Shown here one piece after another: positions 12,650 to 42,105 of a stretch of 46,575 nt of DNA. Source of the stretch: Gammaproteobacteria bacterium (GTDB lineage: Bacteria > Pseudomonadota > Gammaproteobacteria > Eutrophobiales > Eutrophobiaceae). How positions within the stretch are numbered: position 1 is the first letter of the stretch; each line of letters begins with the position of its first letter. The notes under the pieces were generated by a model. It worked only from the letters and a program-made list of their open reading frames with translations, did not search any database and was not told where the DNA came from. Position numbers and translations under genes: made by a program. The stretch is taken from assembly GCA_038922895.1 (NCBI GenBank), contig JBCKWF010000001.1, forward strand, positions 1 to 46,575, given 5' to 3'.

Positions 12650-12751
12650 CAGAATCTTCGTGTGCAGTCAGAGGGGAAAAACCGGGCTGGTTATGGGTAT
12701 AATAATTAAAAAAAAACAGCATTATCCTGATTGAGTGTCCCGGCCACTGGC

Positions 12752-13459
12752 TCAGGAATTAACTTCCTTCTCCATCTGTTCAATACTGATATGGCGGACG
12801 TCCTTGCCCTCGACAAAATAAATCACATATTCACAGATATTCCTGGCATGGTCGCCGATCCTTTCCATAGCACGCGCGATCCAGACTACGTCCATCGAAC
12901 TGGTAATATTGCGCGGATCCTCCATCATATAGGTAATCAGCTGTCTTAATAACGCACCATACTGATCATTGGATTGAGGTTCCTTGCTGGCTACATGCAG
13001 CGCCGCCCTTGAGTCCATCCTGGCAAAAGCATCCAGTGCGTCATGCACCATTTGATTGACCAGCGTTCCCATCGCCTTCAGCCCGATATAATAGGCCTTG
13101 GGGGCCTGCTTTTCTGCAAGCAGGATCGCCATCTTTGCTATTTTTTCTGCCTCATCACCTATGCGTTCCAGATCGGTAATTGTCTTGATGATTGCCATAA
13201 TCAGGCGCAAATCGACAGCAGTGGGCTGTCGTTTCGCCAGGATACGGATACATTCCTCGTCTATCGAAACCTCAAACTGGTTCACATTATATTCAGTCTT
13301 GATTATATTCTCGGCCGTTTCAAGATCAGATTCGACCAATGCATTAATCGAAGCAGTTAATTGTTGCTCGACCAGACCTCCCATCGCAAGCACCAGGCTG
13401 CGGATATTTTCGAGTTCATTGTCGAACTGCTTGGAAATGTGTTGGCTGGTGCTGGTCAT
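12752..13459 (-). CDS. phoU: phosphate signalling complex protein PhoU
   Basis: Two PhoU repeats (DLERIGDEAEKIA and AMERIGDHARNICE). Lies last in the pstCAB-phoU order. Confidence 0.95.
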   Translation of the reverse strand: MTSTSQHISKQFDNELENIRSLVLAMGGLVEQQLTASINALVESDLETAENIIKTEYNVNQFEVSIDEECIRILAKRQPTAVDLRLIMAIIKTITDLERIGDEAEKIAKMAILLAEKQAPKAYYIGLKAMGTLVNQMVHDALDAFARMDSRAALHVASKEPQSNDQYGALLRQLITYMMEDPRNITSSMDVVWIARAMERIGDHARNICEYVIYFVEGKDVRHISIEQMEKEVNS

Positions 13460-13480
13460 AACGATTCTCCGCCGGTGTGA

Positions 13481-14371
13481 CTAACCATGCCGACCGGTTA
13501 TATAGTCCTCGGTCATTTTCTGCCAGGGTTTGGTAAACAGCGTGCTGGTATCATTAAATTCGATTAATTCTCCAATATACATATACGCAGTATAGTCTGA
13601 AACTCGCGCCGCCTGCTGCATATTGTGCGTCACGATAACAATAGTGTATCTGGATTTCAGTTCGTAGATTAACTCTTCAATCTTCAGGGTGGAAATCGGG
13701 TCCAGTGCCGATGCCGGCTCATCCAGCAGCAACACCTCAGGTTCAATTGCGATTGCCCTTGCAATGACCAGACGCTGTTGCTGACCGCCTGATAGCCCCA
13801 TTGCATCTGCATCAAGCCGGTCCTTCACCTCGTCCCACAACGCCGCACTGTGTAGTGACTTTTCTACAACCTCCTCCAGCACCTTGCGGCTCTTGATCCC
13901 ATGAATGCGCAGGCCATAAGCCACGTTCTCAAATATAGTCTTCGGGAACGGATTCGGTTTCTGGAACACCATACCGACCCTGCGCCTCAATTCCGAAACG
14001 TTTATCGATTTCGCTAAAATATTTTCGCCATGCAGGGTTATCTCACCCTCTACACGTATATTATCAATCAGATCATTCATACGGTTAAAACAGCGTAGCA
14101 AGGTCGACTTGCCGCAGCCGCTCGGACCAATAAAGGCGGTTACCCTTTTTTCAGGTATCTTCAGGTTTATAGTTTTTAATGCCTGGTTGTTGCCGTAAAA
14201 GAAACTAAAGTTCTTCACCTCAATACAGATCTTCTCATTATCAAGCTCGACCCTGCTGGACGATTTCCTGATTATATCCGGATCAATAGCGTGCGTGCGT
14301 AGGTTACGCTGCGGTTCATCATGCTGACTCATATCATTCTTGCTCACCTGACTAGTGCTGTTCGGAAGCAC
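13481..14371 (-). CDS. pstB: phosphate ABC transporter ATP-binding protein
   Basis: Walker [10 protein letters not shown], signature LSGGQQQR, Walker B LLLDEP. GTG start at 14371 with a GGGAGA SD 6-7 nt upstream. An ATG at 14332 is an alternative. Confidence 0.93.
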
Positions 14372-16010
14372 GGTATTTCTCCCTTAGCTTATTTCTAATA
14401 TGGATTGCTGCCAAGTTTAAAAATATGATTATCAGCACCAGTAATAGCGCAGTTGCAAATACGAGCGGCCTGGCGGCCTCAACATTCGGACTTTGAAAAC
14501 CTACATCATAGATGTGAAACCCCAGATGCATGAATTTGCGTTCCAGATGCAGGTAAGGAAAGTTAGCGTCGAGAGGCAGTGAAGGCGCCAGTTTGACTAC
14601 ACCAACCAGCATCAACGGCGCAACTTCCCCGGCTGCCCGGGCAATGGCCAGGATCATACCGGTCATCATCGCCGATGCTGTCATTGGCAACACGGTACGC
14701 ATTAATGTTTCTGCCTTGGTAGCACCCAGTGCAAGACTGCCTTCCCGTATTGATCTGGGCACCCTTGAGAGGCCTTCTTCGGTTGAAACGATAACCACGG
14801 GCACAGTGAGGATGGCAAGTGTCAATGCAGCCCAGAGCAGCCCCGGCGTACCAAATGTAGGTGAAGGCAATGATTCGGCAAACAGTAATTCATCAATATT
14901 ACCGCCGATAAAGTAGACAAAAAATCCAAGTCCAAATACGCCGTATACAACCGATGGCACACCGGCCAGATTATTGACCGCAATACGGATAATCCTGACC
15001 AGCGTACCCTGCTTCGCATACTCACGCAGGTAAACAGCGGCAATCACGCCGAACGGGGTAACCATGATAGACATTATTATTACCATCATTACCGTGCCAA
15101 ATATGGCCGGGAAGATACCACCCTCCGTATTTGCCTCTCGAGGTTCATCGGAGACAAATTCCCACAGCTTTTTCAGATAAAAGCTGACCTTGGCAAACAG
15201 CGACATTGCATTCGGGCGATACGCCCTGACAACCTGTGACAAGGGTAATTCAATCTCGCTACCATCAGAAATCCTGGCAGTGATACTGTATCTGCCTAAC
15301 CCGGCATACAGCCGGGAAAGTTCTTCGGTATGACTGTCGTATTGCTGCTGCAGCTGATTTTGCTGCTCAGCAAGCAGGGCCTGTGCACCTGAATCTCCCA
15401 GCTGCTTTGCTTGCAGACGCAATCGTTCCATACTGAAATTAATCTCACCTATCAGATCCTTCTCGATATGTTCTATTGCATCATGGACTACTGCAGTTTC
15501 AGCTATCGCCTGCTGAAACTTGTCCCATACTGAACTGTTATCAGCAGGATCATCCTGACCGTTCTGCTTCACGGCGACCAGATAAGCATACAGGTTGCCC
15601 CATGCACGCCGCTCAACTGCCATTAATTCGTCAGGATAGCGGATATCCATCATGCCGTTCCCCACCACCCAGCGAAAATCCATGCCTAGATGGTCCCGAT
15701 TTCCTGTCTTGATCAGGTATCGGTCAATAAAGTCCATATCTTCCGGAATGCGAACATCGGTTTCAGCGATCCGGGATCGCGGTACATTTTCATGATCCAC
15801 AAGTTCACCGATAATCAGAGTGTTGGTACCCTCTGCGTCCATGTATTCAAATTCTGCTATTGATGCCGGCCAGAAATGTCCGAGTCCGCGTACCGCAATC
15901 AGTGTTAACAGCCCCAGTACCATCAGTATGGAAACACTGACTGCCCCTGCATTCAGCCAGATCCAGGGGGTACCGCTATCCAGCCAGCTTTTTATATTTT
16001 TCGGTATCAT
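14352..16010 (-). CDS. pstA: phosphate ABC transporter permease PstA (long form, 552 aa)
   Basis: C-terminal permease core with EAA-type loop [20 protein letters not shown]. Large loop after TM1. ATGA overlap with pstC. Confidence 0.9.
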
Positions 16011-18286
16011 AATGAACTGTACTTCTGGCGCAGACGTTGTCTTACCACTTCAGCCACTGTATTAAACACGAACGTTGCCATGAACAATACCAGCCCGGCA
16101 AGAAACAGGATCCGGTAATGCGTACTGCCCAATTCGGACTCGGGCATCTCCACTGCGATATTTGCAGAAAGCGCACGAAAGCCCTGGAACATATTCAGAT
16201 CCATGATGGCCGTATTTCCGGTGGCCATCACTACGATCATGGTTTCACCGACTGCACGGCCGAGACCGATCATAACTGCAGAAAAAATGCCGGGGCTCGC
16301 TGTAAGTAATATCACCCTTGCCATCGTTTGCCAGGGCGTGGCCCCCAATGCAAGTGAACCTGTAGTCAGGTGCCTGGGTACGCCGAAGATTGCATCCTCG
16401 CTGATGGAAAATATAGTGGGGATCACTGCGAAGCCGATGGCTATACCAACAATAAACGAATTACGTTGATCATAGGCTATCCCCAACTCCTGAGTCAGCC
16501 ATAAAGGCAGGTTCCCATCAAACAACCATAATTCGATCGGCTTGCTTATACCAAATACCAGTGCTGTAACCAGCATAATGACCGGGATTAATATTATTGC
16601 CTCTGAACCGGCCGGCACCCGCAGTCTGATTCGTTCAGGCAGCGTGTGCCATAGCCAGGCGGTTGAGAGTATCGCCAGTGGTATCATAATAAATATCAGG
16701 AACATTGCAGGCAGATATGCCTCGACTATCGGGGCAAACCACAGGCCCGCCAGAAACCCGAGGATGACTGTTGGCAAGGCTGCCATGATCTCGATGGTTG
16801 GTTTTACCAGGTTGCGCAAACCGGGCGACATGAAATAGGCGGTATAGATTGCAGCCATAATCGCGAGTGGAATGGCAAATAACATCGCATAAAAAGATGC
16901 CTTCAGAGTACCGAAAGCCAGCGGTGTTAGACTGAATTTTGGTTCAAAGTCACTGCTGGCGGACGAAGACTGCCAGATATATGCCGGTTGTTCGCGGCTT
17001 TCATACCAGACCTTGCCCCAGATGGTGTTCCACGATACCTCCGGATGTTCATTTTCAAGGTCCCACAATTGCAGTTCTCCATTGCTGCCTTCAACCAGGA
17101 CTGCGTTGGCCCTCGGGGCAATTGCGAGCATGCCTTTAGGCCCTGAATTTACCTGCTTAATCTTCATAGTGCGATGGGCTGTTGCATGATAGATGCCCAG
17201 ATTACCGGCCTCGTCCAGTGCCAGCATGCCCTTGCGATAATGTTCCGGGACCATGCTGTGTATGGCCGCCGTCTGCGAGTCAAAATTTCGCACATTCTGT
17301 AATGTATAATTATTGTCAGCATCCCTGACCGGAAACCATTGTGAGATGGATCCGTCGGTAGAACCAACCAGTATGGATATGCCCCCGCTTAAAAACTGCA
17401 GTGAAGTAATTCTTGCGTTGTTATGTACTACCCTGATCCGCTCAAGTAACTGGGGCGCCGTTTTATCGCTGATATCGTAGAAATATAACCAGCCTCTGTC
17501 GTCGGCAAAATACAATTCCCGCTGCTCCACATCGAGCACCAGATGGGTTACTTTTGTATTCGTGTTCATCTGTATGGTCTGATCAATTCGCTCAACCGTC
17601 TGGCCATCACCCAGAACACCGGATTGCAGCGCGAGATTGACCAGCAACAAACGACCATCTTCGGTAACTGCAGCAATCGTAGTCTGCGTTTCGTCAGACT
17701 GCGCAGACAAAAGCATCAGTCGTTTTTGGATTGAATCAATACGGATCGGCTTACCATCAAGCAGGCCGGTTACTGACGGCGTGATCAATCTTTTATCCTC
17801 TGGATAGGTAACGCTATATTGATGGCTGCGCAGTAATACTGACCCGTTGTCCAGCCCGAAGGCAAGCAATCGCTGGGCCGGATCACCGGCAGCGAAACTG
17901 GTGACTGATCTGCTTGGGTCTGACAGCACCGATTCCTGCTTTATAATCCCACCGGTTGTGGTATTAAAAAACAGTATGCCTCCCAGGTCTGTCACCCGCA
18001 TACCGATTTCATGTTGTTCTTCCATAGCGTAATAGACAGACGCCTGTTCTGAACCACCAGGCAGGCTGTAGGAGGCTACCTGCTCCAGCCGGGCAGGCAG
18101 AAACAGCGGGACAACAACCCAGACCAGATACAAGGCTATCATGACTATCGCGGCTATCACCCCGCTACCGCCAATTGCCACCAGATAGCGTATCACCACG
18201 TCCTTTAGCTTGCGGTAATTACGATAACGTTTTGCGGCCGCGTCGTTAAAATCCGGCAGAAAGGTTTCTGTATTGCTTACTGGCAT
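16007..18286 (-). CDS. pstC: phosphate ABC transporter permease PstC (long form, about 760 aa)
   Basis: C-terminal permease core with [26 protein letters not shown] domain of about 430 aa lies between TM1 and the core. I chose the start MPVSNTETFLPDF... at 18286. The extra 36 codons up to 18394 run through a Pho-box-like promoter sequence. Confidence 0.88.
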   Translation of the reverse strand: MPVSNTETFLPDFNDAAAKRYRNYRKLKDVVIRYLVAIGGSGVIAAIVMIALYLVWVVVPLFLPARLEQVASYSLPGGSEQASVYYAMEEQHEIGMRVTDLGGILFFNTTTGGIIKQESVLSDPSRSVTSFAAGDPAQRLLAFGLDNGSVLLRSHQYSVTYPEDKRLITPSVTGLLDGKPIRIDSIQKRLMLLSAQSDETQTTIAAVTEDGRLLLVNLALQSGVLGDGQTVERIDQTIQMNTNTKVTHLVLDVEQRELYFADDRGWLYFYDISDKTAPQLLERIRVVHNNARITSLQFLSGGISILVGSTDGSISQWFPVRDADNNYTLQNVRNFDSQTAAIHSMVPEHYRKGMLALDEAGNLGIYHATAHRTMKIKQVNSGPKGMLAIAPRANAVLVEGSNGELQLWDLENEHPEVSWNTIWGKVWYESREQPAYIWQSSSASSDFEPKFSLTPLAFGTLKASFYAMLFAIPLAIMAAIYTAYFMSPGLRNLVKPTIEIMAALPTVILGFLAGLWFAPIVEAYLPAMFLIFIMIPLAILSTAWLWHTLPERIRLRVPAGSEAIILIPVIMLVTALVFGISKPIELWLFDGNLPLWLTQELGIAYDQRNSFIVGIAIGFAVIPTIFSISEDAIFGVPRHLTTGSLALGATPWQTMARVILLTASPGIFSAVMIGLGRAVGETMIVVMATGNTAIMDLNMFQGFRALSANIAVEMPESELGSTHYRILFLAGLVLFMATFVFNTVAEVVRQRLRQKYSSL

Positions 18287-18308
18287 CGCGCAAGTGTAGG
18301 TGTGGTTA

Positions 18309-18326
18309 ATGACATATTTGTTACAC
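18309..18326 (-). promoter_or_regulatory. Pho-box-like site upstream of pstC (GTGTAAC-AAAT-ATGTCAT on the minus strand)
   Basis: Two 7-nt half-sites with 11-bp phasing that resemble CTGTCAT-N4-CTGTCAT. A TACACT -10-like hexamer lies 10 nt downstream and ends 6 nt before the pstC ATG. Confidence 0.5.
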
Positions 18327-18591
18327 GACCCCGTGTTCTGGAATATATATACAGTGGTTAGTTTGTCCGTGATCGTTTTTTTTGAGACCCGCAAGCTTCC
18401 CGGCGTAACAGTTGTTCATCACAAATTAAATGTTTGTGCTGTCTGTCCACACGCTGGAGTGACAGCTGACAAATGACTTGTCACGCGTATCCGGACATCT
18501 TTTCAGCTTGCCTGGCATCCGTGCAGATCCCTGCTGCTTCCATAAAGGCTGACATTATATATAGCAGCCCGTGTATTTGTTACAGGAAAAA

Positions 18592-18666
18592 CTGTCATAA
18601 AAATTTAACAATACAAATACACGAAAGTAATAAAATTGTAACAATTGTAATAAAATTGTAACAATT
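18592..18666 (+). promoter_or_regulatory. Plus-strand array of Pho-box-like half-sites with 11-bp phasing
   Basis: CTGTCAT-aaaa-ATTTAAC-aata-CAAATAC-acga-AAGTAAT-aaaa-TTGTAAC-aa-TTGTAAT-aaaa-TTGTAAC. The first 11 nt match the E. coli consensus. The TTGTAAT and TTGTAAC half-sites recur in the phoB/porin array at 37439-37467. Confidence 0.45.
18627..18666. repeat. perfect tandem duplication, 2 x 20 bp (gtaataaaattgtaacaatt)
   Basis: Read directly: 18627-18646 is identical to 18647-18666. It lies immediately left of the Rep C-terminal fragment. Confidence 0.95.
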
Positions 18667-18671
18667 AGGTA

Positions 18672-19192
18672 TTGCCCAGCAGAATTGCAAGATCAGTTAT
18701 TTACCGTATTATAATGAAGGCCTATTGCAAACACTGTGAACTGAAGAAACATCCGCCGACCAGGACAGATATAATTTCTGACCTGTCAGAATTTTCACTG
18801 CCATTACTTCGCATCGAATTAACTCTACGTCGGCCAGAGTTGAAAGGCCGGGGGGTACTGGACGAGTCCATCATATGGAATATTTTTCAAAGCTGGAGAT
18901 CCACACAATGAAAATCCGAAACATTGCAGACGTCACTTTACGGCCATTCGTCAAGCTCACTTTGCAGTCCTGGTATGATGGCAGTGATGTCTCTCTTACA
19001 CTGCCACGCAGAACTTTTTATAAATACCGGAAAGAAATTTTACACGAGACCGGCATCGATATTTCAATGTCGTATCGTGAACAGAATCCAGATGCAAAGC
19101 CGACATTATTGGGCATGGATGAATTAAAAAAGAGAGAAGTAAAAATCTACCCAGACCGCATCCAAGCGTCACTCTTCGGGGCTGGCCGATAG
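18672..19192 (+). pseudogene. C-terminal half of a replication initiation protein (phage gpII/X, Phage_CRI-like), with an internal frameshift near 18870-18880
   Basis: KAYCKHCELKKH...LRIELTLRRPELKGRG in ORF 18672-18911 continues in another frame (ORF 18875-19192) as EYFSKLEIHTM...QSWYDGSDVSLTLPRRTFYKYRKEILHETGIDIS. This is the characteristic C-terminal block of this Rep family as I recall it. Confidence 0.65.
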
Positions 19193-19372
19193 CACTGCCA
19201 TGAATCACCAGTGTGACTACCAGACCAGCAATAGATGCACGTGCTACGCACCAGCGGCCAGGGTGAAATGGATAAAAACTCTGAGTTGTGATAATAAGCT
19301 ACGAATAAATACAAATTTTAATGCTCCGTTGTCAAAGAGCAATTAGGGGCCTATATCTAGTTAGGAGTAATC

Positions 19373-19843
19373 ATGGACATAATTACCGTCGCATCTGCGT
19401 TTAGCCAAGCGCACCAAATCATCAAGGCGTTGCTTGAACTCAAGGTTGATTCTGAAACACTCGCCAAAATCACTACCTTGCAGTCTGTCCTTGCCGAAGC
19501 TCAAACATCTCAACTCATGCTGCTTGAGCAAAATTCGTCTTTGCTGAAGCTGAAAAACAATCTGGAAGAAGAAATTGTTCGCCTTGATACATGGGCGCAC
19601 GAGTCGCAACGCTACAAACTGCACGGGATACAGTCTGGTGTTGTCGCTTATGCGCTGAAGGAATCCCATGCAAACGGAGAACCACCATATTGGCTTTGCA
19701 CAAACTGCTACAACAACGGCCAAAAATCTATCCTCAATCGTAGCAAACGTAGTGGCTATGACCATACATATACTTGTACGCGCCAAGGATGTGGCAGCTC
19801 TATTATTATTGATGAGAATAATTCCCCTCAACATGTTTCCTAA
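19373..19843 (+). CDS. hypothetical protein: N-terminal coiled coil plus C-terminal four-Cys zinc-ribbon-like module
   Basis: Strong SD (taGGAGtaatcATG). Heptad-like LxxL-rich N-terminus (TLQSVLAEAQTSQLMLLEQNSSLLKLKNNLEEEIVRL), then WLCTNC...YTCTRQGC. No family recognised. Confidence 0.6.
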   Translation: MDIITVASAFSQAHQIIKALLELKVDSETLAKITTLQSVLAEAQTSQLMLLEQNSSLLKLKNNLEEEIVRLDTWAHESQRYKLHGIQSGVVAYALKESHANGEPPYWLCTNCYNNGQKSILNRSKRSGYDHTYTCTRQGCGSSIIIDENNSPQHVS

Positions 19844-19933
19844 CTCGGCAGTCAACCGAAAGTAGTGTCTAAAATTAAGTAGAATTTTACAGGTAGACGC
19901 GCGTGATTTCTGCCGGTCTCGATTCAACCGCCC

Positions 19934-19964
19934 AATGAGAGGCGAATTTAATTAATTATCGTGG
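19934..19964. repeat. direct repeat copy 1 (AATGAGAGGCGAATTTAATTAATTATCGTGG)
   Basis: Matches 20646-20678, with 10 + 16 identical positions around one G/A difference, a 2-nt indel near the 3' end, then GTGG in both. Contains the palindrome TTAATTAA. Ends 9 nt before the orf223 ATG. Confidence 0.9.
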
Positions 19965-19973
19965 GGATTAGAT

Positions 19974-20645
19974 ATGAACAAGTGGATGAGCAGAACTACA
20001 AGGCCCCTACTGGCCGTTGTGCTGTGTCTGGCGGCACTGGAAATGAGTCAGGCTGCCGAGCCTGAGCCGTTGGAGTTCAAGGGATCAAAAATGGGTTCGA
20101 GCGAGCAGGAGCTTAAGGAACTATATCCCAGTTCGTTTTTCCAGCCGGAGATTAATGAAGAACTATATCGCAGTTTGGGCGAGCGGTATAAGGCACTATA
20201 TCTCAGTTCGCACAGTTCGCGTGAAGTACCGCGCGTATTTTGCGAGAGTCCGGAGGATACTCAAGGTGATCGAGTCTGCCGCATTTCCGAGGCCACTATT
20301 GCCGCCGTTGCAGCAAGCACATACTTTACCTACTACTCCAATAGTCTAGCTTCGATATTGATAACATTTGAACAGCCAGAGGCAAACTTTGCTCCAGTGC
20401 TGGAGGCGCTTGTAGAGAAGTACGGACCGCCGACAAAGATCGAGCCAGATGAAGTGGTTACGGGCATGGGCGTAAAATATACCAACCAGACCGCCACCTG
20501 GTTCCTGCCGTCAGGCTCTATCACAGCACAGAAATATAACGGTGAAATTAGCGAGTCGATTGTGTACTTTTTGTCAACCATGGGGTTAGAGGAAAGTAAG
20601 CGCCGTAATGCCGAGCACGCCAAAGATGCCGCTAAAGACCTGTGA
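19974..20645 (+). CDS. hypothetical secreted protein (signal peptide), 223 aa
   Basis: N-terminal signal peptide MNKWMSRTTRPLLAVVLCLAALEMSQA|AEP. No family recognised. Bracketed by about 31-bp direct repeats. Confidence 0.6.
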   Translation: MNKWMSRTTRPLLAVVLCLAALEMSQAAEPEPLEFKGSKMGSSEQELKELYPSSFFQPEINEELYRSLGERYKALYLSSHSSREVPRVFCESPEDTQGDRVCRISEATIAAVAASTYFTYYSNSLASILITFEQPEANFAPVLEALVEKYGPPTKIEPDEVVTGMGVKYTNQTATWFLPSGSITAQKYNGEISESIVYFLSTMGLEESKRRNAEHAKDAAKDL

Positions 20646-20678
20646 AATGAGAGGCAAATTTAATTAATTATCTTGTGG
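20646..20678. repeat. direct repeat copy 2 (AATGAGAGGCAAATTTAATTAATTATCTTGTGG)
   Basis: See copy 1. It starts at the first base after the orf223 TGA stop codon (20643-20645). Confidence 0.9.
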
Positions 20679-20810
20679 CCCAGCCAGGCCGATAGCACTA
20701 CTTTTCACCCCCTAGTAACCCTGGCCAGGGACACTCCCGCAAGCGTAGCGCATCTGGTGGTAATACCGCACTTTTGTCTACGTGGTGGACTTTGGTGTAT
20801 ATTCAGGGAC

Positions 20811-21311
20811 ATGATTGACTGGTTTACTGGATACGTTGGCTATGATGCCTCTGGCCTGAAATTCGGTCGCTTTTTAGATATAGACAGCGACGGGCAAGTA
20901 CTGCGAGACCGGGACCGGTGGGAACAGCAAAGAGGTAGCTGGGAATCCGGATTACAGGTAACGCGTTCGCTTTCTACAGATGTCATGCGGCAGTCGAGAT
21001 ATCTCTGCTCACCCTCATGCTTAAAAATTTCTGGCAATCCATCAAAATTTCTTCAGGGTCACAATGTAGCAGGTCCTTCGGTCTCACTGCTCGGGCCAGT
21101 TTTACAAGCGACAGTTCGTCAGTTCGGCGTTGGAATTCGTCCGCGTGATGCAGATTCAAGAGTACTCCCCGCAGTTCATCGATCGCGAGTCGATATCACA
21201 ACGATGATTGACCTGGACACTCACAATTCAGTACACGAATGGTTACGCCTGGCTGAAACAAATACCCGTAGCTGGCACGGTCGCGCAATCGCTGATTCTG
21301 GTACTGTCTAA
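20811..21311 (+). pseudogene. N-terminal half of a replication initiation protein (phage gpII/X, Phage_CRI-like), truncated at the IS30-like end
   Basis: MIDWFTGYVGY..., KISGNPSKFLQGHNVAG and HRSRVDITTMIDL are hallmark blocks of this Rep family as I recall it. Similarity ends at ...ADSGTV, followed at once by a stop at the predicted IS30 terminus. The 46 codons before the ATG at 20811 look non-coding. Confidence 0.7.
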
Positions 21312-22362
21312 GGAGGGCGGTTCCAAGTGCAAAAAGTGCAGCGTGATGCTGCCTAAAATCAAATGCATCTGGCGTGAACAACTGCGCAGGACATTTGAAC
21401 CCCAACGATTTACGTGGTCGCGGGTTCAGTGACCAGGCAATCGCATCCAACTCCCTCTGCGTGACACCACTCAAATCTTTACCCTTGGGCAGGTACTCGC
21501 GCAGAAGTCCATGCGTGTTCTCATTGATGCCACGCTGCCAGGGACTATGCGGATCGGCACAATAAACTTTGCTGCCCGTTGCAGATGATCTGTCATTTGC
21601 TTGCCCTGAGCGTACGTCATCGACAAGCGCTTTTGTGCCTCAATACGCTTGAACGCTTTTCCAAACCCCTGCACTGCCAAAGCGGCGCTACTATCTTCCA
21701 TCCGGGCCAACACAGTAAACAAGGTGGTGCGCTCCACCAAGGTGCCTACCGCTGAACGATTGTGCGCCCCCTTGATCAGATCGCCTTCCCAATGACCCGG
21801 GGACAAGCGCTCCTCTATTTCTGGTGGACGATCATGAATGCTGACCATGTCAGGGCTACGTCCACGCCTGTCCTCACCTCGGGCACGCGGGCGTCGCTTG
21901 GCGTAACCAGCTAATTACTTCGGTACGCAGCTCGCCACGCGGCATTGCATAAATGGCCGTGTAGATGGTTTCGTGAGAAACCTGAAAGCTGGGAGTATCG
22001 GGATGCACGGCTGCTAGTGTGGCAGCAATCTGCTCCGGTGAATAACCCACGCACAGGTATTTTTTGACCTGTCCCCATAGCGCATTACCAGACCGCAGTT
22101 TGCACGGGGTACGTGGCTCTATAGCGCAGCGCTGGGCGCGTCGCTGTGCCTCATCAGATTTATAACCGCCCGCCGGCGAAGGTCTTCCCGCGCGCCGCGG
22201 CTCTTGTGGACGACTCCAGCCGTTACGTTGCAACTCGCGGCTCACTGTGCTGGTAGATCGACACAGCTCACGAGCGATCTCGCTAGCCTTGTAGCCTTGC
22301 GATAACCCTGTTTGAATCAGAGTGCGCTCTTCAATACTCAACTGCTTGTAGTGTTTTCCCAT
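21311..22362 (-). pseudogene. IS30-family transposase broken by two frameshifts into three ORF fragments
   Basis: HTH N-terminus MGKHYKQLSIEERTLIQTGLSQGYKASEIARELCRSTSTVSRELQRNGW (21874-22362). Middle fragment DMVSIHDRPPEIEERLSPGHWEGDLIKG (21471-21848). Manual reframing restores ...LRQ/RRPRARGEDRRG near 21905 and ...QRAA/KVYCADPHSPWQRGINENTHGLLREYLPKGKDLS near 21570. The last fragment reads on to 21196, past the predicted IS end. Confidence 0.8.
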
Positions 22363-22402
22363 GCAACATTATCATCCAGATATGCACTGCTGAATCTCGC
22401 CT
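21311..22402 (-). mobile_element. IS30-family insertion sequence, decayed (about 1.09 kb, boundaries approximate)
   Basis: Encloses the IS30 transposase fragments. Imperfect terminal inverted repeats: 21311 AGGAGGGCGGTTCCAAGTGCAAAAAGTG against the reverse complement of 22376-22402 AGGCGAGATTCAGCAGTGCATATCTG. I saw no matching flanking duplication. Confidence 0.6.
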
Positions 22403-22518
22403 ATGTATATCAAAAGGCAGGTGATGCAGCCAAGGCACAACAGTTACGGATTCAAAACGAGACTGCGCATTAACAACAGCACAGGTATGCTATCAAAAGA
22501 CGGGGAATCAGGATTGAC

Positions 22519-23304
22519 TTATAAACCAGCTTGCCATTGTATACGGGCACGACCTTGTTCTATTGGGCCCAGCAACGACAACAGGCCTTGGACTGAATCT
22601 GGCGCATCAGCAGCAACCCAGGCCTGGCCTGTAAACCGCAGTATACTACCGGCCGGATCCATACTAAGGTCGCCCTGTACACTTAATAGCGCATCTGCGG
22701 ACACGGTCTCGATCTTTCCCTGCACAGGCCCACCAGCAACGGTCTGTAACTGAATCGAGTAATTACCCAAAGGCCGATGTGTGTTCAATTGATCCAGTTG
22801 CAGTCCCTCTATATTCGCTGCGAACCTGCCTGTTGCAGGCAACTTGCGGTAATTACCGGCTAACGCATTGCCATTGAAAACAATTCGTCCGCGCGGACCA
22901 AACATGTTCAGTTCGGGTAAAAGCATCGACAATATTTGCACGGGCAGTGCGCCTTCAAGCTGTGGTAGCTGCCACCCGTCCCGATTCAGTATTAGCACAC
23001 CGCTGACTGCACCTTCATCAGGCACAAGCTCAAACTGCAGCCTTAGCCGGCCGAGCAACAACCACAGGATTGAAACCCTTACCTCAAAGGATTCAATCAG
23101 TAAGCTGCGCGTATCAGATAATCTGAAACTAAGGTTGTAAAAAACGGGATGAAACACTGTCCCGGTTACCTGCTGCCACTGTATATTTACCGGGATTTCA
23201 TCCCGGTACCGGTGCAGGACACGATCTGCCGGCAATTGTATCAAAAACGAAATCAAAAAAATCGCCGGCCCGGCGTACAATAATCGACGCCGGTACTGCA
23301 TCAT
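22519..23304 (-). CDS. gspN: type II secretion system protein N
   Basis: Last gene of the collinear gsp operon. One N-terminal TM (LLYAGPAIFLISFLIQL), about 260 aa. ATGA overlap with gspM. Confidence 0.75.
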   Translation of the reverse strand: MMQYRRRLLYAGPAIFLISFLIQLPADRVLHRYRDEIPVNIQWQQVTGTVFHPVFYNLSFRLSDTRSLLIESFEVRVSILWLLLGRLRLQFELVPDEGAVSGVLILNRDGWQLPQLEGALPVQILSMLLPELNMFGPRGRIVFNGNALAGNYRKLPATGRFAANIEGLQLDQLNTHRPLGNYSIQLQTVAGGPVQGKIETVSADALLSVQGDLSMDPAGSILRFTGQAWVAADAPDSVQGLLSLLGPIEQGRARIQWQAGL

Positions 23305-23810
23305 TGCGTAGTAGCTGGGATCAGTGACAGGCTTGCCTCAACCATACCAAGCTGGTCCTGCAAACGGCTGATACTGGCCAGACTGATTCGGGCAGCGGCC
23401 CGATTACGCAGCTGCAACAGAAATTCCATCAATTGCGCATACGCTACCTGCTCAAACCTGAGCAAAACTCCTTGCCCCGAGGCAGACCGCAGTTCACTGA
23501 CTTGCCCATGCACACCAGATTCACGCAACAGTTCTTCTACCAATGCAATGGTCAGGACTGCTTTCCCGGGGCTGGCAGGATCAGTTACACCGCGCAGTTG
23601 ACCTATTTCAGCGATCTGTGCCTGCATCCAGACCAGGTCCTCACGCAAGCCGGGTATTTCCGCCTCCACTTGTTCACGTCGCTGGATCGCCGGTCCAATC
23701 AACAACCAGGCAATCACAATCAGCAGCAGCACAGCCCCGGCTGCAAGCACGGATTTTTCCCGCGCTGCCCGCTGCTCCCACCAGGACAATACTCTTTCCT
23801 GTAACATCAC
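23301..23810 (-). CDS. gspM: type II secretion system protein M
   Basis: 169 aa with a single TM (VLAAGAVLLLIVIAWLLIGP). The position between gspL and gspN and 4-nt overlaps on both sides support the call. Confidence 0.8.
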   Translation of the reverse strand: MMLQERVLSWWEQRAAREKSVLAAGAVLLLIVIAWLLIGPAIQRREQVEAEIPGLREDLVWMQAQIAEIGQLRGVTDPASPGKAVLTIALVEELLRESGVHGQVSELRSASGQGVLLRFEQVAYAQLMEFLLQLRNRAAARISLASISRLQDQLGMVEASLSLIPATTQ

Positions 23811-25063
23811 ACCTGCCCACCCAGACGGATACGGCCATACACACGACCGTCCTTCAGTTCTGCATTTTCAATATCGACAGAAGTAAACTGTGCCAGTTGA
23901 CCCTGCAATAGTTCCAGAGACTCGTAATCGGCAACACTGACTTCCAGCGTGATACTACTGCCGTCAAAATTAATCATTTGTAACCGGGAGTCCGGATTTG
24001 CCACGAGCACCCCGGACAGCAGTTCCAGTCGAGCGAGCAAATCCAACCTGTTATTTCCAGACTGGCTGTTTTCTACCAGACTTTTGATCTCTTGCTCCAT
24101 CTGAAAGCGCGGGTCAACCAGGTTGTTTGCCGCAGGGAAGGCCTGACGATAAGTTGCTTCAATCGATTGCTGCAGTTGCAGATGTTCTGACTGAAGCTTC
24201 GCACCATTAACCAACCAGTGTATTGCACTGATCACAATCAGTACTGCCAGCATTACAGTCGCAGGCAGCAGCCTGTGCAGATTCAGGCCCTGCCGATCCC
24301 TGTTTGCATAAGGGCCTGTCAACAGATTCGTGCCCGGTTCAGGCAACGGCTGGCATGCCAGCCAGGCACTACGTGGGCGCTCATCTAGAAAGATATCAAG
24401 CTGAATATTACGTGACGTGAGCGCATCCGACCAGGCAGAGACTGTTTTATATTGCTGATGATCAGCGACCCGTACCCGTAATAATTGTGGTGGGGGATTG
24501 GCCTGTTCCAGCGCCAGCAACAGCGTCCCGATAGTCTGTGTGCCGGGCCCCCCTGCCAACACGGCCCCCTGTCGACCCGGCATTCTCAGTAGTAAGGGTG
24601 GCATACTCGCATCAATCAACCATACACCTGGATCCGGCGCGGGTATGGCAAGATAGTCCGGCACCAGCATACTTACTTGCCAGCCAGACTGTTTGCATTG
24701 TTCCAGCAGTCCGCCCAGGTACGCATGTTCAATCACCACGACCGGCACATCCTGTACACCTCTGTCCGTCTGCAGTGGGACCAGATGGTATGAGGCGGGC
24801 TCATGCAATAGTTGATCTTCGAGGGCAAACGGCAAGGCCTGCAGAAAACGCTTACGGTTGCGTACCGGCAGACTGACCTTATGTATACGGGCCCGATCTC
24901 CAGGCACACACAACACAAGTCTGGCACCTGCCGGGGCCGGTATCGCGGCAATCTCCGCACAACTGCCCTGTTGCCGCAGACCAGATTCGCCAGTAAAGCA
25001 ACGCGCCCAGTTTATGCCATTCGCATGCAGGCGCACCCACCAATATTCGCCACGTATGCTCAT
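23807..25063 (-). CDS. gspL: type II secretion system protein L
   Basis: 418 aa. Cytoplasmic actin-like N-domain, central TM (LLPATVMLAVLIVISAIHWLV) and periplasmic C-domain. Operon position fits. Confidence 0.8.
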   Translation of the reverse strand: MSIRGEYWWVRLHANGINWARCFTGESGLRQQGSCAEIAAIPAPAGARLVLCVPGDRARIHKVSLPVRNRKRFLQALPFALEDQLLHEPASYHLVPLQTDRGVQDVPVVVIEHAYLGGLLEQCKQSGWQVSMLVPDYLAIPAPDPGVWLIDASMPPLLLRMPGRQGAVLAGGPGTQTIGTLLLALEQANPPPQLLRVRVADHQQYKTVSAWSDALTSRNIQLDIFLDERPRSAWLACQPLPEPGTNLLTGPYANRDRQGLNLHRLLPATVMLAVLIVISAIHWLVNGAKLQSEHLQLQQSIEATYRQAFPAANNLVDPRFQMEQEIKSLVENSQSGNNRLDLLARLELLSGVLVANPDSRLQMINFDGSSITLEVSVADYESLELLQGQLAQFTSVDIENAELKDGRVYGRIRLGGQV

Positions 25064-25101
25064 ATTAATATAGTCTGTTATTTTCCATTACAGATGAAAG
25101 T

Positions 25102-26070
25102 CTAGCGTAACTCGCGGTTATGCCGCAGGATTACGGCCTGGCCCTGATCACGCCGATACAAGGTCGTCATCCGGTATACGACATTATCAAAACTCAACTG
25201 TGTGTGTGCGTTAAAAAACCGTGTCCCCAGGACCAGGCCCGGTGGGATCGGTTTGGTCTTGTCGCCAAGCATCTGCTCGGAGACAATATTCATATCCTCC
25301 ACAGGCTGTTGAGCCACTTTAGCTGTCCACACTTCCGCCAGCAGCATTGTCTGACCTGACAGCTCCCATTCCGTTACTGCAGCTGCCAGCACCTCGGTAC
25401 TGGCCGTATTAATATTAATGGGGGTCGATTCAGGTAAGGCGCTGACATAAGGCTCCAGTTTTTGCCAGACCTCCAGATCTACTCCACGAACCAGCCGCAG
25501 CTCAGCCGTATCTTCGAACGGGCGGTTTGCCGCAAAATAAGGCGTGGCCAGACTGATATAAAAAACATCCTCCGCGCCCCAGGGACCTGCAGTACTACTA
25601 TCCGCATCGATCCAGTCAGCCACAGCCTGGGCTATCCCGGGATTCAGTTCAAGGATCTGTAACAAACGCTCGAACTGCTGCATCGCCAGCGTATCCAGCT
25701 TGCCTTCTGCATCAACCAGATTGTTCAGATTAAACCGGGCCTGCAGGTCTTCCACCCATCCAAACAATACTCCCCATCCTGCCGGCAGCGGTGGCAGCGG
25801 TTGTGCCCACAGATCGGTCACAGCATCAAAACTGTTATCGTCCTGTTCGAGTATGCCGGCAATCCAGGCCTGTGCTGCCCTGGATGCCAGGTCCGCCTGG
25901 GCCAGTGCAGCACTGTTTTCCACCTGTCTCACCCAGACCTGGTTCGACAGTCCGATACGACTGACAATGGCCGTCAGTATCGCCACTATGAGCAAAATAG
26001 TTATCAGCGCCACACCGCGTTGGCGGACACTCAAATCAGTTTGCAGCGCCAACATTGAACACGCGTTCAT
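25102..26070 (-). CDS. gspK: type II secretion minor pseudopilin K
   Basis: N-terminal QRGVALITILLIVAILTAIVS hydrophobic segment typical of GspK, 322 aa. An alternative start at 26055 is possible. Confidence 0.85.
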   Translation of the reverse strand: MNACSMLALQTDLSVRQRGVALITILLIVAILTAIVSRIGLSNQVWVRQVENSAALAQADLASRAAQAWIAGILEQDDNSFDAVTDLWAQPLPPLPAGWGVLFGWVEDLQARFNLNNLVDAEGKLDTLAMQQFERLLQILELNPGIAQAVADWIDADSSTAGPWGAEDVFYISLATPYFAANRPFEDTAELRLVRGVDLEVWQKLEPYVSALPESTPININTASTEVLAAAVTEWELSGQTMLLAEVWTAKVAQQPVEDMNIVSEQMLGDKTKPIPPGLVLGTRFFNAHTQLSFDNVVYRMTTLYRRDQGQAVILRHNRELR

Positions 26071-26662
26071 AAGTTTGCTGGCTACCCAGCGTTAAGGTCA
26101 ATTGGACCGCTAGTGGCAAGCCAGCCGCTTGATCGGTTGCGGGAATGGTCGGCCAGGATGCATTCCACTGACGGGTGGTATCCAGAAATCGCAACTGGAT
26201 GTCTGTCACCTTATCAATGAGTTCGGCCTCTGTACCCTGTTCAGATTCCGGCATATTCAGTCGCGGCCAGGTTGTCCGATACAAGCTGCCTTCCCGCAGC
26301 CGGTAGGCTACACGCAGATGAGGACTGACCAGACCTGCACTATAGGATGCGTGGCCGCCCCTCGTAAATGACACTAACTCCCCTTGGGCTGCCGGGTTCG
26401 GTTCGCTGGCACCCACAAATGGGCGGACCGCATTCACTGGTATCCGTTGTGACAGGTTCCTGGCCTGATCAAAATCCTGTTGCAGCAGTATCATTATAGT
26501 ATCCAGCCGACGCCAGTATTGTCGTTTTTGCTGCAGGCCGTCCTGGATCGCGAGCCCCTGCTGCAGGCCGCTGTATCCCGCACCGGCCATCAGGATGAAT
26601 ATCGTCAACGCTACCAGGACCTCCAGCAGGGTCATACCCTGTTCGTATGAGCGATATTTCAT
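26036..26662 (-). CDS. gspJ: type II secretion minor pseudopilin J
   Basis: Prepilin-type N-terminus EQG|MTLLEVLVALTIFILMAG. 208 aa. ATGA overlap with gspI. Confidence 0.85.
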   Translation of the reverse strand: MKYRSYEQGMTLLEVLVALTIFILMAGAGYSGLQQGLAIQDGLQQKRQYWRRLDTIMILLQQDFDQARNLSQRIPVNAVRPFVGASEPNPAAQGELVSFTRGGHASYSAGLVSPHLRVAYRLREGSLYRTTWPRLNMPESEQGTEAELIDKVTDIQLRFLDTTRQWNASWPTIPATDQAAGLPLAVQLTLTLGSQQTYERVFNVGAAN

Positions 26663-27084
26663 CGCCGCCCCCGATCATCCGTTACATTTTCGAATGAAAC
26701 GGACCGGGTCGCAGGATTTTGCAGAAAACCCTGCAGGCTAATCAGCGCAGAATCTTCGTCCTTACCCACACTGACAGTAATGCTGCGCATTTGCGTCTGA
26801 CTGGTCTCTGCGATATGTTCGTTCCAGTACCAGGTCTGGCCACCCATCTGTTCAGATCCACTATAGGCACGCGTATCCGGCCATTCACCCATCACCTGGC
26901 GCATTGTAATCCGGTTCTGCGCGACCCAACGCGCGATAACCCTGTCCGGTAGCCCCTGACTGACGGCAATCCCCTGGGCAAGACCTTTCCATAATGCCGT
27001 CATCGCAATGACCATGACCATAAGTGCAACCAGGACTTCAAGCAAGGTAAAACCGGCTTGTCTCGAGCAGGCTCTGGTTTTCAC
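26659..27084 (-). CDS. gspI: type II secretion minor pseudopilin I
   Basis: Prepilin-type N-terminus QAG|FTLLEVLVALMVMVIAMTAL. 141 aa. Confidence 0.85.
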   Translation of the reverse strand: MKTRACSRQAGFTLLEVLVALMVMVIAMTALWKGLAQGIAVSQGLPDRVIARWVAQNRITMRQVMGEWPDTRAYSGSEQMGGQTWYWNEHIAETSQTQMRSITVSVGKDEDSALISLQGFLQNPATRSVSFENVTDDRGRR

Positions 27085-27584
27085 AGTTCCAGCACCCCGG
27101 CTTCCCCTACCGGACCCATTGCAACCACATATTCTCGCTGTTCACCTTGCAGTACCAGTCTGAATGAATCCTGTTCACCCGTTGGGAAAAGGTAAATCTC
27201 CCCGGGTACCGACAGGAATTGTCCGTTTATCTCCAGCTTGTCCAGCGTAACCGCCGATATCTGGTGATCGCCAGCGAACGGTTGCAGGGTGACGTCTACA
27301 AACTCATTTCCGGCAATCTGCAGAAAACGATAACTATGTTCGACCGGGTCGAGTATTACCTGCCATATCCTTGCTGACATCACGGCCTCTTCCCTGGCCT
27401 GATTTATTAACAGCACCATCCGGTTCGCAGCGGTGGCGGCATCCCGATTACGGTTATTGCCCAGCATTGGAACTACCATGCCGGCCAACACGGCGATGAT
27501 TACGATCACTGCCAGTAGTTCCAGTAAGGTAAAACCATGCGGCCGTGAGGTGTGAGGAGTAAGGAGTGAGAGGAACATTCGCAA
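27081..27584 (-). CDS. gspH: type II secretion minor pseudopilin H
   Basis: Prepilin-type N-terminus PHG|FTLLELLAVIVIIAVLAGMV. 167 aa. Confidence 0.85.
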   Translation of the reverse strand: MRMFLSLLTPHTSRPHGFTLLELLAVIVIIAVLAGMVVPMLGNNRNRDAATAANRMVLLINQAREEAVMSARIWQVILDPVEHSYRFLQIAGNEFVDVTLQPFAGDHQISAVTLDKLEINGQFLSVPGEIYLFPTGEQDSFRLVLQGEQREYVVAMGPVGEAGVLEL

Positions 27585-27592
27585 CCGGCCTT

Positions 27593-28030
27593 TCAGAGCT
27601 GCCAGGATCCGATATCGTCTTCATCTCCGCTACGACCATTCGGTCCAGGGCTGAATACATCCACATCAGCATGCTTGCCCGGTTGCAGATACAGGAATTG
27701 TTTGCCCCAGGGATCCTGCGGAATTTTCTCCATATAACGGTTCCAGCTGGGAGGTACCGGATCGGAACCGGGTCGCTCTACCAGCGCCTGCAGACCCTGA
27801 TTAGTAGTAGGATAAGCATGGTTATCAAGCTTGTACATATCGAGCGCGGAGCGAATCGCACGGATATTGCTTTGTGCCGCGCTGATACGGGCCTGATCGG
27901 GCCGGTCCATCACCCTCGGCACGACAACCGCCGCGAGGATACCCAGGATTACCACCACGACCATAAGCTCAATCAGGGTAAATCCGCGATTATAGTTCCG
28001 ACTGCCAGCGCAGGACGTCAACGTGATCAA
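27593..28030 (-). CDS. gspG: type II secretion major pseudopilin G
   Basis: NRG|FTLIELMVVVVILGILAAVVVPRVM...ARISAAQSNIRAIRSALDMYKLDN is classic GspG. No ATG lies near the cleavage motif. A TTG at 28030 sits 8 nt after an AAGGAG SD. The ORF-track start at 28090 would give a leader of about 35 aa. Confidence 0.88.
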   Translation of the reverse strand: MITLTSCAGSRNYNRGFTLIELMVVVVILGILAAVVVPRVMDRPDQARISAAQSNIRAIRSALDMYKLDNHAYPTTNQGLQALVERPGSDPVPPSWNRYMEKIPQDPWGKQFLYLQPGKHADVDVFSPGPNGRSGDEDDIGSWQL

Positions 28031-28139
28031 TATCCATTCTCCTTCGGGCAAAACCTGCATAGATAAATAAGTGAACTGGACCCGCAACAAATGCGGGAGC
28101 CAACCCGGGCTTGCGATGATTGATATATCTTTAACACGG

Positions 28140-29354
28140 TTACATCCCTACCAACTGGTTCATCTCGAATATAGGCAACAGTATGGCCAGCACGATGACC
28201 AGCACGATGCCACCCATAACCAGTATTAACAACGGTTCAATCAATGCGGTTGCGGCAGACACCGTGGTTCCAAGTTCACGTTCATAATGGATAGCGGCAC
28301 GCTCCAGCATACTTTCCAGCTCACCACTCTCTTCGCCTGCAGCCAGCAGGTGTACCAGCAACGACGGAAAGTATCCGGTCCGCTTCAGCGTATCATGTAA
28401 ACGGCCTCCTTCCCGCACCGTTACAGCCGCGCCCAGCACGGCCTCGCGTATTGGCATATTGCTGATCACCTGCGCCCCGATATGCAGGGCTTCGAGCAAG
28501 GGCACACCGCTGCCCGTCAGGATAGCCAGCACCCGGGCCAGACGCGCTGTATTAATAATACGATACAAGCTGCTGATAAACGGCAAGCGCAACAGCAGCT
28601 TGTCACGCTGGTAACGTACCGCAGGACGTCGCAGCATATATACCGACAACATGCCGAGCCCTGCAATACCGGCCAGCAGATACAGGCCGTTGTTTCTGAC
28701 AAAATCGCTGCCGGCAATCAGACCACGGGTAAGTAGCGGTAATTGCTGACCGGTCTGTTCAAATACCTTGATGACTTCAGGCACTACATAGGTCAACAGG
28801 GCTATTACTATCAACACTGCAACGATAGTCAACAGGACCGGATAGATCAGCGCGACGCCGAGTTTATGCCGCAGATGTTGTTGCTCTTCCGTATAGTCGG
28901 CCAGTCGATCCAGGATTTCATCCAGGCGACCACTGGCTTCACCTGCCTCGACCATGGCCCGGTACATTTCGGGAAACGTACCAGGAAACTTTCCCAGTGC
29001 TTCGCCAAGCGAGAGGCCTTCTGATATATGTGCGCGTACTCCGGTAATGACGGATTGCAGGTTACGGCGGCTGGTCTGTTCACCCAGCGCACGCAACGCC
29101 TGCTCCAGCGGCATGCCCGCACGCACCATTGTTGCAAGTTGACGGGTCATCAGGGCAAGGTCTGCTGTAGATACCGACTGTCTGAATCGTTGTGATACAC
29201 CAGCTTCACTATGCTCAGCTACCCGCTGGACGTCCAGCGGAAACAGTCCCTGCCCACGCAACCATGCACGTATCTGACGGGGGGAATCACCAGCTAGCAC
29301 CCCCTTGCGGGACCGCCCGCCGGCATCAAGTGCATGGTATTCAAACGCGGCCAT
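28140..29354 (-). CDS. gspF: type II secretion inner-membrane platform protein F
   Basis: 404 aa, with two GspF-type repeats and three TM segments. Starts 1 nt after the gspE stop. Confidence 0.92.
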   Translation of the reverse strand: MAAFEYHALDAGGRSRKGVLAGDSPRQIRAWLRGQGLFPLDVQRVAEHSEAGVSQRFRQSVSTADLALMTRQLATMVRAGMPLEQALRALGEQTSRRNLQSVITGVRAHISEGLSLGEALGKFPGTFPEMYRAMVEAGEASGRLDEILDRLADYTEEQQHLRHKLGVALIYPVLLTIVAVLIVIALLTYVVPEVIKVFEQTGQQLPLLTRGLIAGSDFVRNNGLYLLAGIAGLGMLSVYMLRRPAVRYQRDKLLLRLPFISSLYRIINTARLARVLAILTGSGVPLLEALHIGAQVISNMPIREAVLGAAVTVREGGRLHDTLKRTGYFPSLLVHLLAAGEESGELESMLERAAIHYERELGTTVSAATALIEPLLILVMGGIVLVIVLAILLPIFEMNQLVGM

Positions 29355-29355
29355 G

Positions 29356-32996: not shown

Positions 32997-33007
32997 AATT
33001 GACCCGG

Positions 33008-39399: not shown

Positions 39400-42105
<2,706 letters not shown>

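Follow-up and report, generated by a model that had tools for sequence, protein, structure and literature searches.

A dead small rolling-circle plasmid with a permuted initiator gene, next to an IS30-family element beside pstC

The split rep gene and the IS30-family element

The stretch of gammaproteobacterial DNA analysed here (the window, 46,575 bp) carries, beside the pstC promoter, an island in which the replication initiator gene (rep) of a small plasmid is present as two halves in permuted order. On the plus strand, the C-terminal half of the initiator protein (Rep; 18717-19192) is followed by two cargo genes, orf156 (19373-19843) and orf223 (19974-20645), by a decayed origin of replication (20750-20805) and by the N-terminal half of Rep (20811-21308). 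A seven-nucleotide spacer (21309-21315) then leads to an IS30-family insertion sequence (IS) on the minus strand (21316-22380, with its end at about 22373-22380) and to a plus-strand fragment of a tetratricopeptide repeat (TPR) gene (22381-22443). The Rep element proper, 18717-21315, is of unit length (2,599 bp) and has a G+C content of 0.474 as against 0.517 for the window. Taken together, the parts identify an integrated, no longer functional plasmid of a known small rolling-circle class, lying next to an IS30-family element that is likewise dead.

The N-terminal half lies within an open reading frame (ORF) at 20673-21311 (+), is intact in frame and ends in ...ADSGTV. This ORF matches Phage_CRI (PF05144) over positions 1-155 of 232 (E 3.9e-16, 59.9 bits, gathering cut-off 21.7) and phrog_702 over positions 2-171 of 382. 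The C-terminal half, 2.1 kb upstream on the same strand, begins with MKAYCKHCE and is divided between two plus-strand ORFs in different frames. The first (18672-18911) matches Phage_CRI 167-220 weakly when taken alone (E 0.027, 14.6 bits, under the cut-off) and phrog_702 179-239, and the second (18875-19192) matches G2P_X_C (PF05155) 21-54 (E 5e-4, 21 bits, under the Pfam cut-off) and phrog_702 294-338. The change of frame is a -1 frameshift at ~18877, where one G is missing in TGG(G)AA. A clade-specific Rep profile of 339 positions, built from 18 full-length homologues, places the N-terminal half at positions 1-170 (1-170/171) and the C-terminal half at about 179-338, in two frames (178-249 and 236-338, with scores of 86 and 122 bits for positions 178-338). 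Because these spans abut without overlap, the two fragments are adjacent and non-overlapping parts of one protein, and alignment to homologues indicates that ~7 Rep codons (YWGKNST) are missing between them. A query made by fusing the two halves matched 343 proteins, the best of which have 339-341 aa and 55-63% identity at 100% query cover (E down to 2e-132). In the relatives the gene is a single one: the fetched loci yielded 63 rep genes of full length and without interruption.

These results bear on an earlier, sequence-only reading of the window, which had recognised a Phage_CRI-type N-terminal half at 20811-21308 and a frameshifted C-terminal half at 18672-19192. The N-terminal half and the frameshift were borne out, and the C-terminal half, significant with the clade profile, is real as well; its start, however, has to be moved to about 18715-18717 (MKAYCK...), the preceding 18395-18716 being chromosomal. 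DNA-level similarity to other rep genes accordingly starts at 18713-18715.

Phage_Cri proteins carry motifs similar to those of Rep_trans initiators (Carr et al. 2016, PMC4797284), in which the active-site residues are T176, Y178, G180, R189, the catalytic Y191, K193 and E196 (PMC4797284). In the clade of the window Rep, the stretch T-V-Y-W-G-K-N-S-T-R-W-S-M-K-A-Y-C-K-H-C-E has exactly the spacing of the Rep_trans motifs, and the T-x-Y-x-G ... (R/K)-x-Y-x-K..E arrangement is identical to that of the pT181-family proteins RepC/RepD (PMC4797284), although no significant sequence or fold match to these was obtained. The fused Rep gave a poor AlphaFold2 model (pLDDT 63), and neither Foldseek against the PDB nor a profile search of PDB sequences returned a meaningful structural match. 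Since the motif spacing matches Rep_trans, the catalytic tyrosine is probably the Y of KAYCK, among the first residues of the C-terminal half; the Tyr of GTVY, considered for this role, was dropped on the same spacing. The break in rep would then fall between the two strands of the active-site hairpin. With the first motif ending after T-V, and the catalytic strand parted from the rest of the protein so that Rep can no longer be made, the split rep is a pseudogene. This Rep belongs to the II/X (Phage_CRI) family and is Rep_trans-like rather than of the HUH type.

The C-terminal half also holds an intact internal ORF resembling the X protein (18908-19192). Residues ~237-245 of the rep alignment (window ~18885-18910) show the only dip, a mild one, in synonymous variation along rep (lowest observed/expected ratio, 0.86), which sits just upstream of a near-invariant internal Met (~residue 240) and would fit a ribosome-binding site for an X-like protein, as in filamentous phages.

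The transposase of the adjacent element carries the domains HTH_38 (E 3e-17) and rve (E 1.6e-5), matches NF033563 at positions 1-98 (51 bits) and 117-206 (90.5 bits, cut-off 80), and is interrupted by two frameshifts. At the DNA level the core of the element is ~65-69% identical to elements of the ISPsp7/ISBlo4 type, and matches in plasmid databases reach only 64-69%. Its right terminus is intact at 21316 and reads GGCGGTT..., comparable to the right end of ISPsp7 (...AACCGCC), whose inverted repeats begin with GGCGG. On the left side, 11-18 nt remain upstream of the ATG at 22362 before TPR sequence sets in. Because TPR homology begins at 22374-22381, the left inverted repeat is missing, and with it at least ~20 nt of the left end. 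A candidate left inverted repeat at 22390-22401 was ruled out, as this stretch is TPR-gene sequence. The element had previously been drawn as far as 22402; its assignment to IS30 stands, and its end is brought back to about 22373-22380, with 22381-22443 going to the TPR fragment. As that reading had also stated, there is a single IS copy, and neither a second copy in the window nor a target duplication around the element was found.

A replicon of the small-plasmid type

Homologues of the window Rep occur on very short contigs, many of which have terminal overlaps equal to assembler k-mers (55, 95, 99, 123 or 127 nt), and others form head-to-tail concatemers, with a period of 1,310 bp in L001, eight copies of 1,388 bp in L002 and a period of ~2 kb in L003. 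On the strength of these overlaps and concatemers, the relatives are complete circles of 1.31-2.62 kb, on which the genes are ordered rep, cargo, origin. Two of them are among the smallest replicons we have seen: L002 (ENA ERZ26869290 ctg339347) is an 11-kb contig of eight tandem circles coding for Rep alone, and the L001 unit consists of rep and a 73-codon ORF with ~70 nt of non-coding DNA. The clade of the window Rep is known from metagenomes only (best identity 63-66%) and forms part of a plentiful group of circles, 1.3-2.6 kb in size, from metagenomes of soil, peat and sediment, for which the shared origin stem-loop provides a simple finding marker.

This stem-loop lies upstream of rep. 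The loop motif TAGT[AG]A[TC]A[CA] is present within 300 nt upstream of rep in 31 of the 34 distinct circles, mostly 50-115 nt from the start codon, and in 29 of these 31 it is flanked by stem arms that pair perfectly over 6 bp or more. Behind the stem-loop come a second small palindrome and a -10-like box. In the window, the origin at 20750-20805 (+) retains the right stem arm and part of the loop (GGTGGTAATACCGCACTTTTGT), then the small palindrome and the -10-like box. The left arm is lost, and the window copy has no fold (z +0.65), whereas the origins of L093 (z -2.2) and L010 (z -3.2) fold. What is left is enough to indicate descent, but not function. The replicon had been called dead from the letters alone, and with rep split and frameshifted and the origin decayed we agree. 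An intact Rep of this clade is predicted to nick within TAGTAATAC of the origin loop; the loop contains T-AATA, like the nick sites of pT181 and f1. A literature search for the loop motif returned nothing relevant.

Both cargo genes are intact. The orf156 product has a coiled-coil N-terminus and a Cys-rich C-terminus and matches phrog_1244, a family of unknown function (E 5e-29); Pfam, NCBIfam and PADLOC searches gave no match. The orf223 product, which has only a weak match to phrog_16676, begins with a signal-peptide-like N-terminus and looks secreted. Neither gene was found in the other fetched circles. Direct repeats of 33 nt (91% identical) bracket orf223 at 19934-19966 and 20646-20678, and an exact 13-mer (GGCCGATAGCACT) recurs at the rep stop codon (19184-19196) and just upstream of the origin remnant (20687-20699). 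Judging by these repeats, the cargo genes look as if they had been added as modules between them.

The closest known counterparts are small cryptic rolling-circle plasmids with a II/X-family Rep, such as pXCV2 of Xanthomonas euvesicatoria 85-10 (NC_007504.1, 1,852 bp), whose origin is built as in the clade, with a stem-loop carrying the loop TAGTGATAC and then a second palindrome. Plasmids of this kind, 1.6-2.8 kb long, are common among isolates of Klebsiella, Acinetobacter, Xanthomonas, Pseudomonas and Vibrio; those of P. aeruginosa (NC_010722.1, 2,140 bp) and Sphingobium baderi (NZ_CP128173.1, 1,582 bp) and the 2,095-bp plasmids of Klebsiella are of a size class like that of the window element. 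The window Rep shares 26-33% identity with the II/X Reps of isolate plasmids over ~90% of its length. Unlike pXCV2-type plasmids, the window copy is integrated, permuted and IS-interrupted, its origin has decayed, and its cargo is absent from the other fetched circles.

The initiator is homologous to those of filamentous phages and of the TLC/Cri satellite of Vibrio cholerae. With gII of phage I2-2 (Lineavirus I22) it shares 28% identity over the full length, and an internal Met for a possible X-like protein is common to both. The window element, however, has a third of the size of an inovirus and lacks a XerCD/dif-type or integrase-type signature. No gene for the morphogenesis ATPase pI/Zot or for coat proteins was found, and profile searches with orf156 and orf223 gave no such matches. 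We therefore class the replicon with small plasmids of the pXCV2 type and not with the filamentous phages.

Several relatives depart from the simple circle. In L141 an intact copy stands in tandem with one that has lost 126 nt, covering profile positions 138-178 (700-1000 compared with 2130-2560), and protein P0278 fuses ~residue 112 to ~residue 290 through an internal deletion; both look like defective, helper-dependent deletion derivatives. Four long contigs (L124, L126, L139 and L161, from the Ga0209777 and Ga0315286 sets) hold a more distantly related, intact rep of 38-46% identity adjoining genes for large serine recombinases (~530-600 aa), L124 has two different rep genes 2 kb apart, and the distant rep of L128 is neighboured by a tyrosine integrase gene and an excisionase-like gene. 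Some lineages of the Rep family thus seem to ride integrase-bearing elements.

Junctions and history of the island

Comparison with three related genomes (L172, L176 and L171) defines the ancestral site. In L172 and L176 the order is gspN, a TonB-dependent receptor gene, a beta-helix protein gene, lpxR, orf146, a 116-aa TPR gene and, divergent from it, pstC-pstA-pstB-phoU; the PstC proteins are 79% and 88% identical, respectively, to that of the window. L176 is collinear with the window from 10577 to at least 18703 (85% identity from 18395 onwards) and can be aligned up to 18716, and the region is also kept in L172. This identifies 18395-18716 as the promoter region between pstC (-) and the lost TPR gene (+), and 18672-18716, once considered as an IS remnant or as divergent Rep sequence, as the chromosomal 5' region of the TPR gene. 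On the other side of the island, the fragment at 22381-22443 corresponds to TPR codons about 58-79 (YALLNLAYVYQKAGDAAKAQQ) and is 92% identical to L176 6427-6365. L171 (GCA_038922825.1, JBCKWG010000003.1) is 98.6% identical to the window over 22444-33304 and retains the TonB-receptor gene after gspN.

Four junctions result. At J1 (18716/18717) the 5' untranslated region of the TPR gene is joined to Rep codon ~179; at J2 (21308-21316) Rep V170 is followed by TAAGGAG and the right terminus of the IS; at J3 (about 22373-22381) the truncated IS meets TPR codon ~58; and at J4 (22443/22444) TPR codon ~79 is joined to a point 75 bp downstream of gspN, where identity to L171 resumes and where L171 and L176 have the TonB-receptor gene. 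The island thus replaces 196 bp of the TPR gene, and J4 is a separate deletion of ~6.4 kb up to gspN. Capture between the pstC promoter and the end of the type II secretion operon, as proposed from the letters, is right as regards the pstC promoter; the site itself lies inside the small TPR gene, and the adjacency of gspN comes from the separate deletion. At the junctions of the window and of L010, a second permuted copy described below, no direct repeats of the att type were found, the best being an 11-nt repeat with a mismatch that lies off the junctions. Domain and profile searches found no recombinase gene in the island, and no tRNA gene, Rfam family or defence-system match was found in or near it.

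From these parts, junctions and ancestral layout, all of which are shown, we infer an order of events and an enzymology of opening and joining. We propose, with a probability of about one half, that the region is the fossil of a ~2.62-kb rolling-circle plasmid of the pXCV2 type, interrupted by IS30 within rep, opened once at the junction of the IS and the C-terminal part of rep, and joined illegitimately to the chromosome. The ancestral plasmid would have had, besides a II/X-family initiator gene with an origin stem-loop ahead of it, two cargo genes. An IS30-family element would have transposed into the active-site hairpin codons of rep, at about codon 171-173, and the resulting ~3.7-kb circle would have been linearised by a single opening at the IS left end, a site of nicking by the transposase, or close to it, with a loss of ~40-60 nt comprising the IS tip and ~6-7 rep codons. 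Recombination of an illegitimate kind (microhomology or end-joining type) would then have joined the linear molecule into the TPR gene divergent to pstC, removing 196 bp and producing the order C-terminal half, orf156, orf223, origin, N-terminal half, IS30. Later, a deletion of ~6.4 kb would have taken the rest of the TPR gene, orf146, lpxR, the beta-helix gene and the TonB-receptor gene, bringing gspN alongside, and the origin hairpin, the C-terminal half of Rep and the transposase would have decayed afterwards.

IS30 elements transpose by a copy-out-paste-in route and give rise to cointegrates as well as to deletions, some of which are non-transpositional and take away IS ends together with flanking DNA (PMC9333248). 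Because the IS end on the side of the N-terminal half is intact, whereas the other IS end and the C-terminal part of rep are truncated, a single opening with ~40-60 nt nibbled away explains both chromosomal joints. As in the IS30-family rearrangements described by Olasz et al. (2022, PMC9333248), an IS30-type element stands at the joint, a target duplication is missing and there is an adjacent deletion; the window IS differs in having one end truncated, so that the final joints look non-transpositional. The core of the sequence-only reading, a circle of ~2.6 kb with IS30 within rep that was opened at the IS30/rep-C junction, therefore remains the most parsimonious account of the four junctions mapped against related genomes. 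It would make the locus a permuted footprint left by a circular replicon, in an interval between phosphate transport and type II secretion that has been reshaped by a 2.6-kb plasmid, an IS and two deletions.

Several points weigh against this proposal. The window is one whole contig of 46,575 bp, probably from a metagenome-assembled genome, and its structure is known from the assembly alone. The spacer TAAGGAG at J2 could represent mutated Rep codons 171-173, but it does not read as the expected Tyr-Trp-Gly codons, and J2 is for this reason unproven as a product of transposition; the opposite flank of the insertion has disappeared, leaving no target duplication to compare. An intact circle of rep, orf156 and orf223 was not found, either with the IS or lacking it, and the closest Rep is only 63-66% identical. 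Finally, L010 has the same permuted layout without an IS, so the position of the break may have a cause outside this model.

The sequence-only reading had itself favoured a cointegrate followed by deletion, or a tandem array truncated on both sides, and both rank below a single opening since they need extra deletions or a coincidence. Of these, an IS30-mediated cointegrate is the better, though we consider it unlikely. A plasmid-borne or chromosomal IS30 would have produced the order IS, C-terminal half ... N-terminal half, IS, from which deletions would have removed one IS, ~7 rep codons and the 5' sequence of the TPR gene and trimmed the tip of the other IS. Such a course agrees with the order of the genes, with the orientation and with the lack of a target duplication, and IS30 cointegrates do decay by non-transpositional deletions that take all or part of one IS with its flanks (PMC9333248). 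It requires, however, at least two independent deletions, the ends of which would fall ~20 nt into rep and ~20-45 nt into the IS that survives, where a single opening covers both joints, and no second IS copy or remnant is present at J1.

A further possibility arises from the recurrence of the break. A single scan, covering 185,579 species-representative genomes, gave no more than two loci. One of them, L009, is a 2,419-bp circle in a metagenome-assembled genome; the other, L010, is located in the 2.63-Mb chromosome OZ000552.1 of an unrelated gammaproteobacterium. The L010 copy (40% identity, unit length ~2.15 kb) lies at a chromosomal site different from that of the window and has the order tRNA-Ser gene, 480 bp, C-terminal half (profile 173-320), two small ORFs, a foldable origin stem-loop, N-terminal half (1-165) and TonB-receptor gene. 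It contains no IS, and IS30 is thus not the only route to the permuted layout. A weak second match to profile positions 176-196 at L010 10434-10497 (NRWSIKACC*TCDTHQ; 3 bits, E 0.02 in a tiny search space), in another frame and overlapping the end of the C-terminal ORF, may be coincidental or the residue of a second copy. In Xanthomonas plasmid records, two copies that seemed split proved to be over-assembled or partial entries.

The breaks in the window and in L010 fall within the same ~14 rep codons. Possible causes are chance, a site that is fragile or targeted, and selection that removes copies retaining a fragment still able to nick. It is conceivable, if improbable, that the window circle was opened as in L010, at a fragile or targeted site in the hairpin codons and independently of IS30, with IS30 drawn to or selected at the same spot, or with only those copies tolerated in which the catalytic Tyr is parted from the N-terminal domain. 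Besides the IS-free L010 copy, this would accommodate a complete inovirus-like element of the Escherichia coli type (L063, IMGVR_UViG_2010170003_000002, 836-2025), in which an E. coli IS5 (InsH transposase) sits in rep at profile positions 173-175, as well as the deletion in L141 that ends at 178/179. The L141 end, however, lies between short direct repeats, which suggests slippage, and two permuted loci would break within ~14 codons by chance in roughly 5-10% of cases. The origin stem-loop, the presumed nick site, is ~500 bp away from the break in both the window and L010; no repeats are shared at the junctions, and the rep alignment shows no synonymous-site constraint at the break codons. 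An N-half search of 1.84 billion representative proteins gave no clear excess of proteins ending at the break, the short hits that hold the N-terminal half alone being mostly contig-end truncations. Integration mediated by Rep at an origin or nick site inside rep was ruled out, given the position of the stem-loop 50-115 nt upstream of rep in most circles and the lack of synonymous constraint at the break.

The broader claim, that splitting of rep at the active-site hairpin codons is a recurrent, non-random chromosomal route of such mini-plasmids, with the window and L010 as independent cases that arose through a fragile or targeted site or through retention of copies with an N-terminal fragment, appears doubtful to us, and we give it low odds. 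Were it true, a retained N-terminal origin-binding fragment without the catalytic Tyr could block incoming filamentous phages or related plasmids in a dominant-negative manner, and confirmation of the shared ~14-codon break by a wider census would suggest that these replicons are integrated or domesticated by a specific route. The recurring break position is the only feature of the locus that might repay such a census. Integration of SSV1-type viruses splits the element's own integrase gene. As an analogy only, the gene of a key enzyme is likewise halved at the ends of the integrated copy in the window; unlike in SSV1, rep shows no evidence of a recombination site, no conserved DNA and no att repeats at the break, and ~7 codons were lost rather than conserved.

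Two remaining explanations are very improbable. A leftover unit of a head-to-tail array of plasmids or phages, cut back on each side in a separate event, is in keeping with the frequent recovery of relatives as concatemers, but would need two truncations within ~8 codons of the same rep position that leave one unit (2,599 bp), a coincidence of roughly 1-2%. An assembly chimera, in which a free plasmid contig was misjoined to chromosomal contigs, might be suspected in a window that is itself an entire contig, probably of metagenomic origin, with the IS as a potential repeat; we regard this as unlikely, for the sequences at J1, J3 and J4 are unique and share no more than a few bases of microhomology, graph assemblers do not make joins of this sort, and the flanking TPR pieces are collinear and in correct orientation.

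The surrounding interval

The promoter region shared by pstC and the lost TPR gene contains Pho-box-like repeats at 18590-18666 (+), consisting of a Pho box of canonical appearance (CTGTCATAAAAATTTAACA) and, after it, a 20-mer present in two exact tandem copies (GTAATAAAATTGTAACAATT). Together the Pho box and the 20-mers form a series of plus-strand TTGTAAY repeats with 11/9-nt spacing that is conserved in L172 and L176. Since this region now points into the C-terminal half of Rep, the X-like ORF, orf156 and orf223, these might be phosphate-regulated.

On the other side of the island, the TonB-receptor gene downstream of gspN in L171 is truncated by an island (12660-20786) with a type I restriction-modification system, a GmrSD-like gene and Fic, and the stretch that follows the type II secretion operon is a hotspot at which strains differ. 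Farther along the window, the cumulative GC skew reaches its minimum at ~39500-40500, where gene orientation switches from mostly minus to plus.

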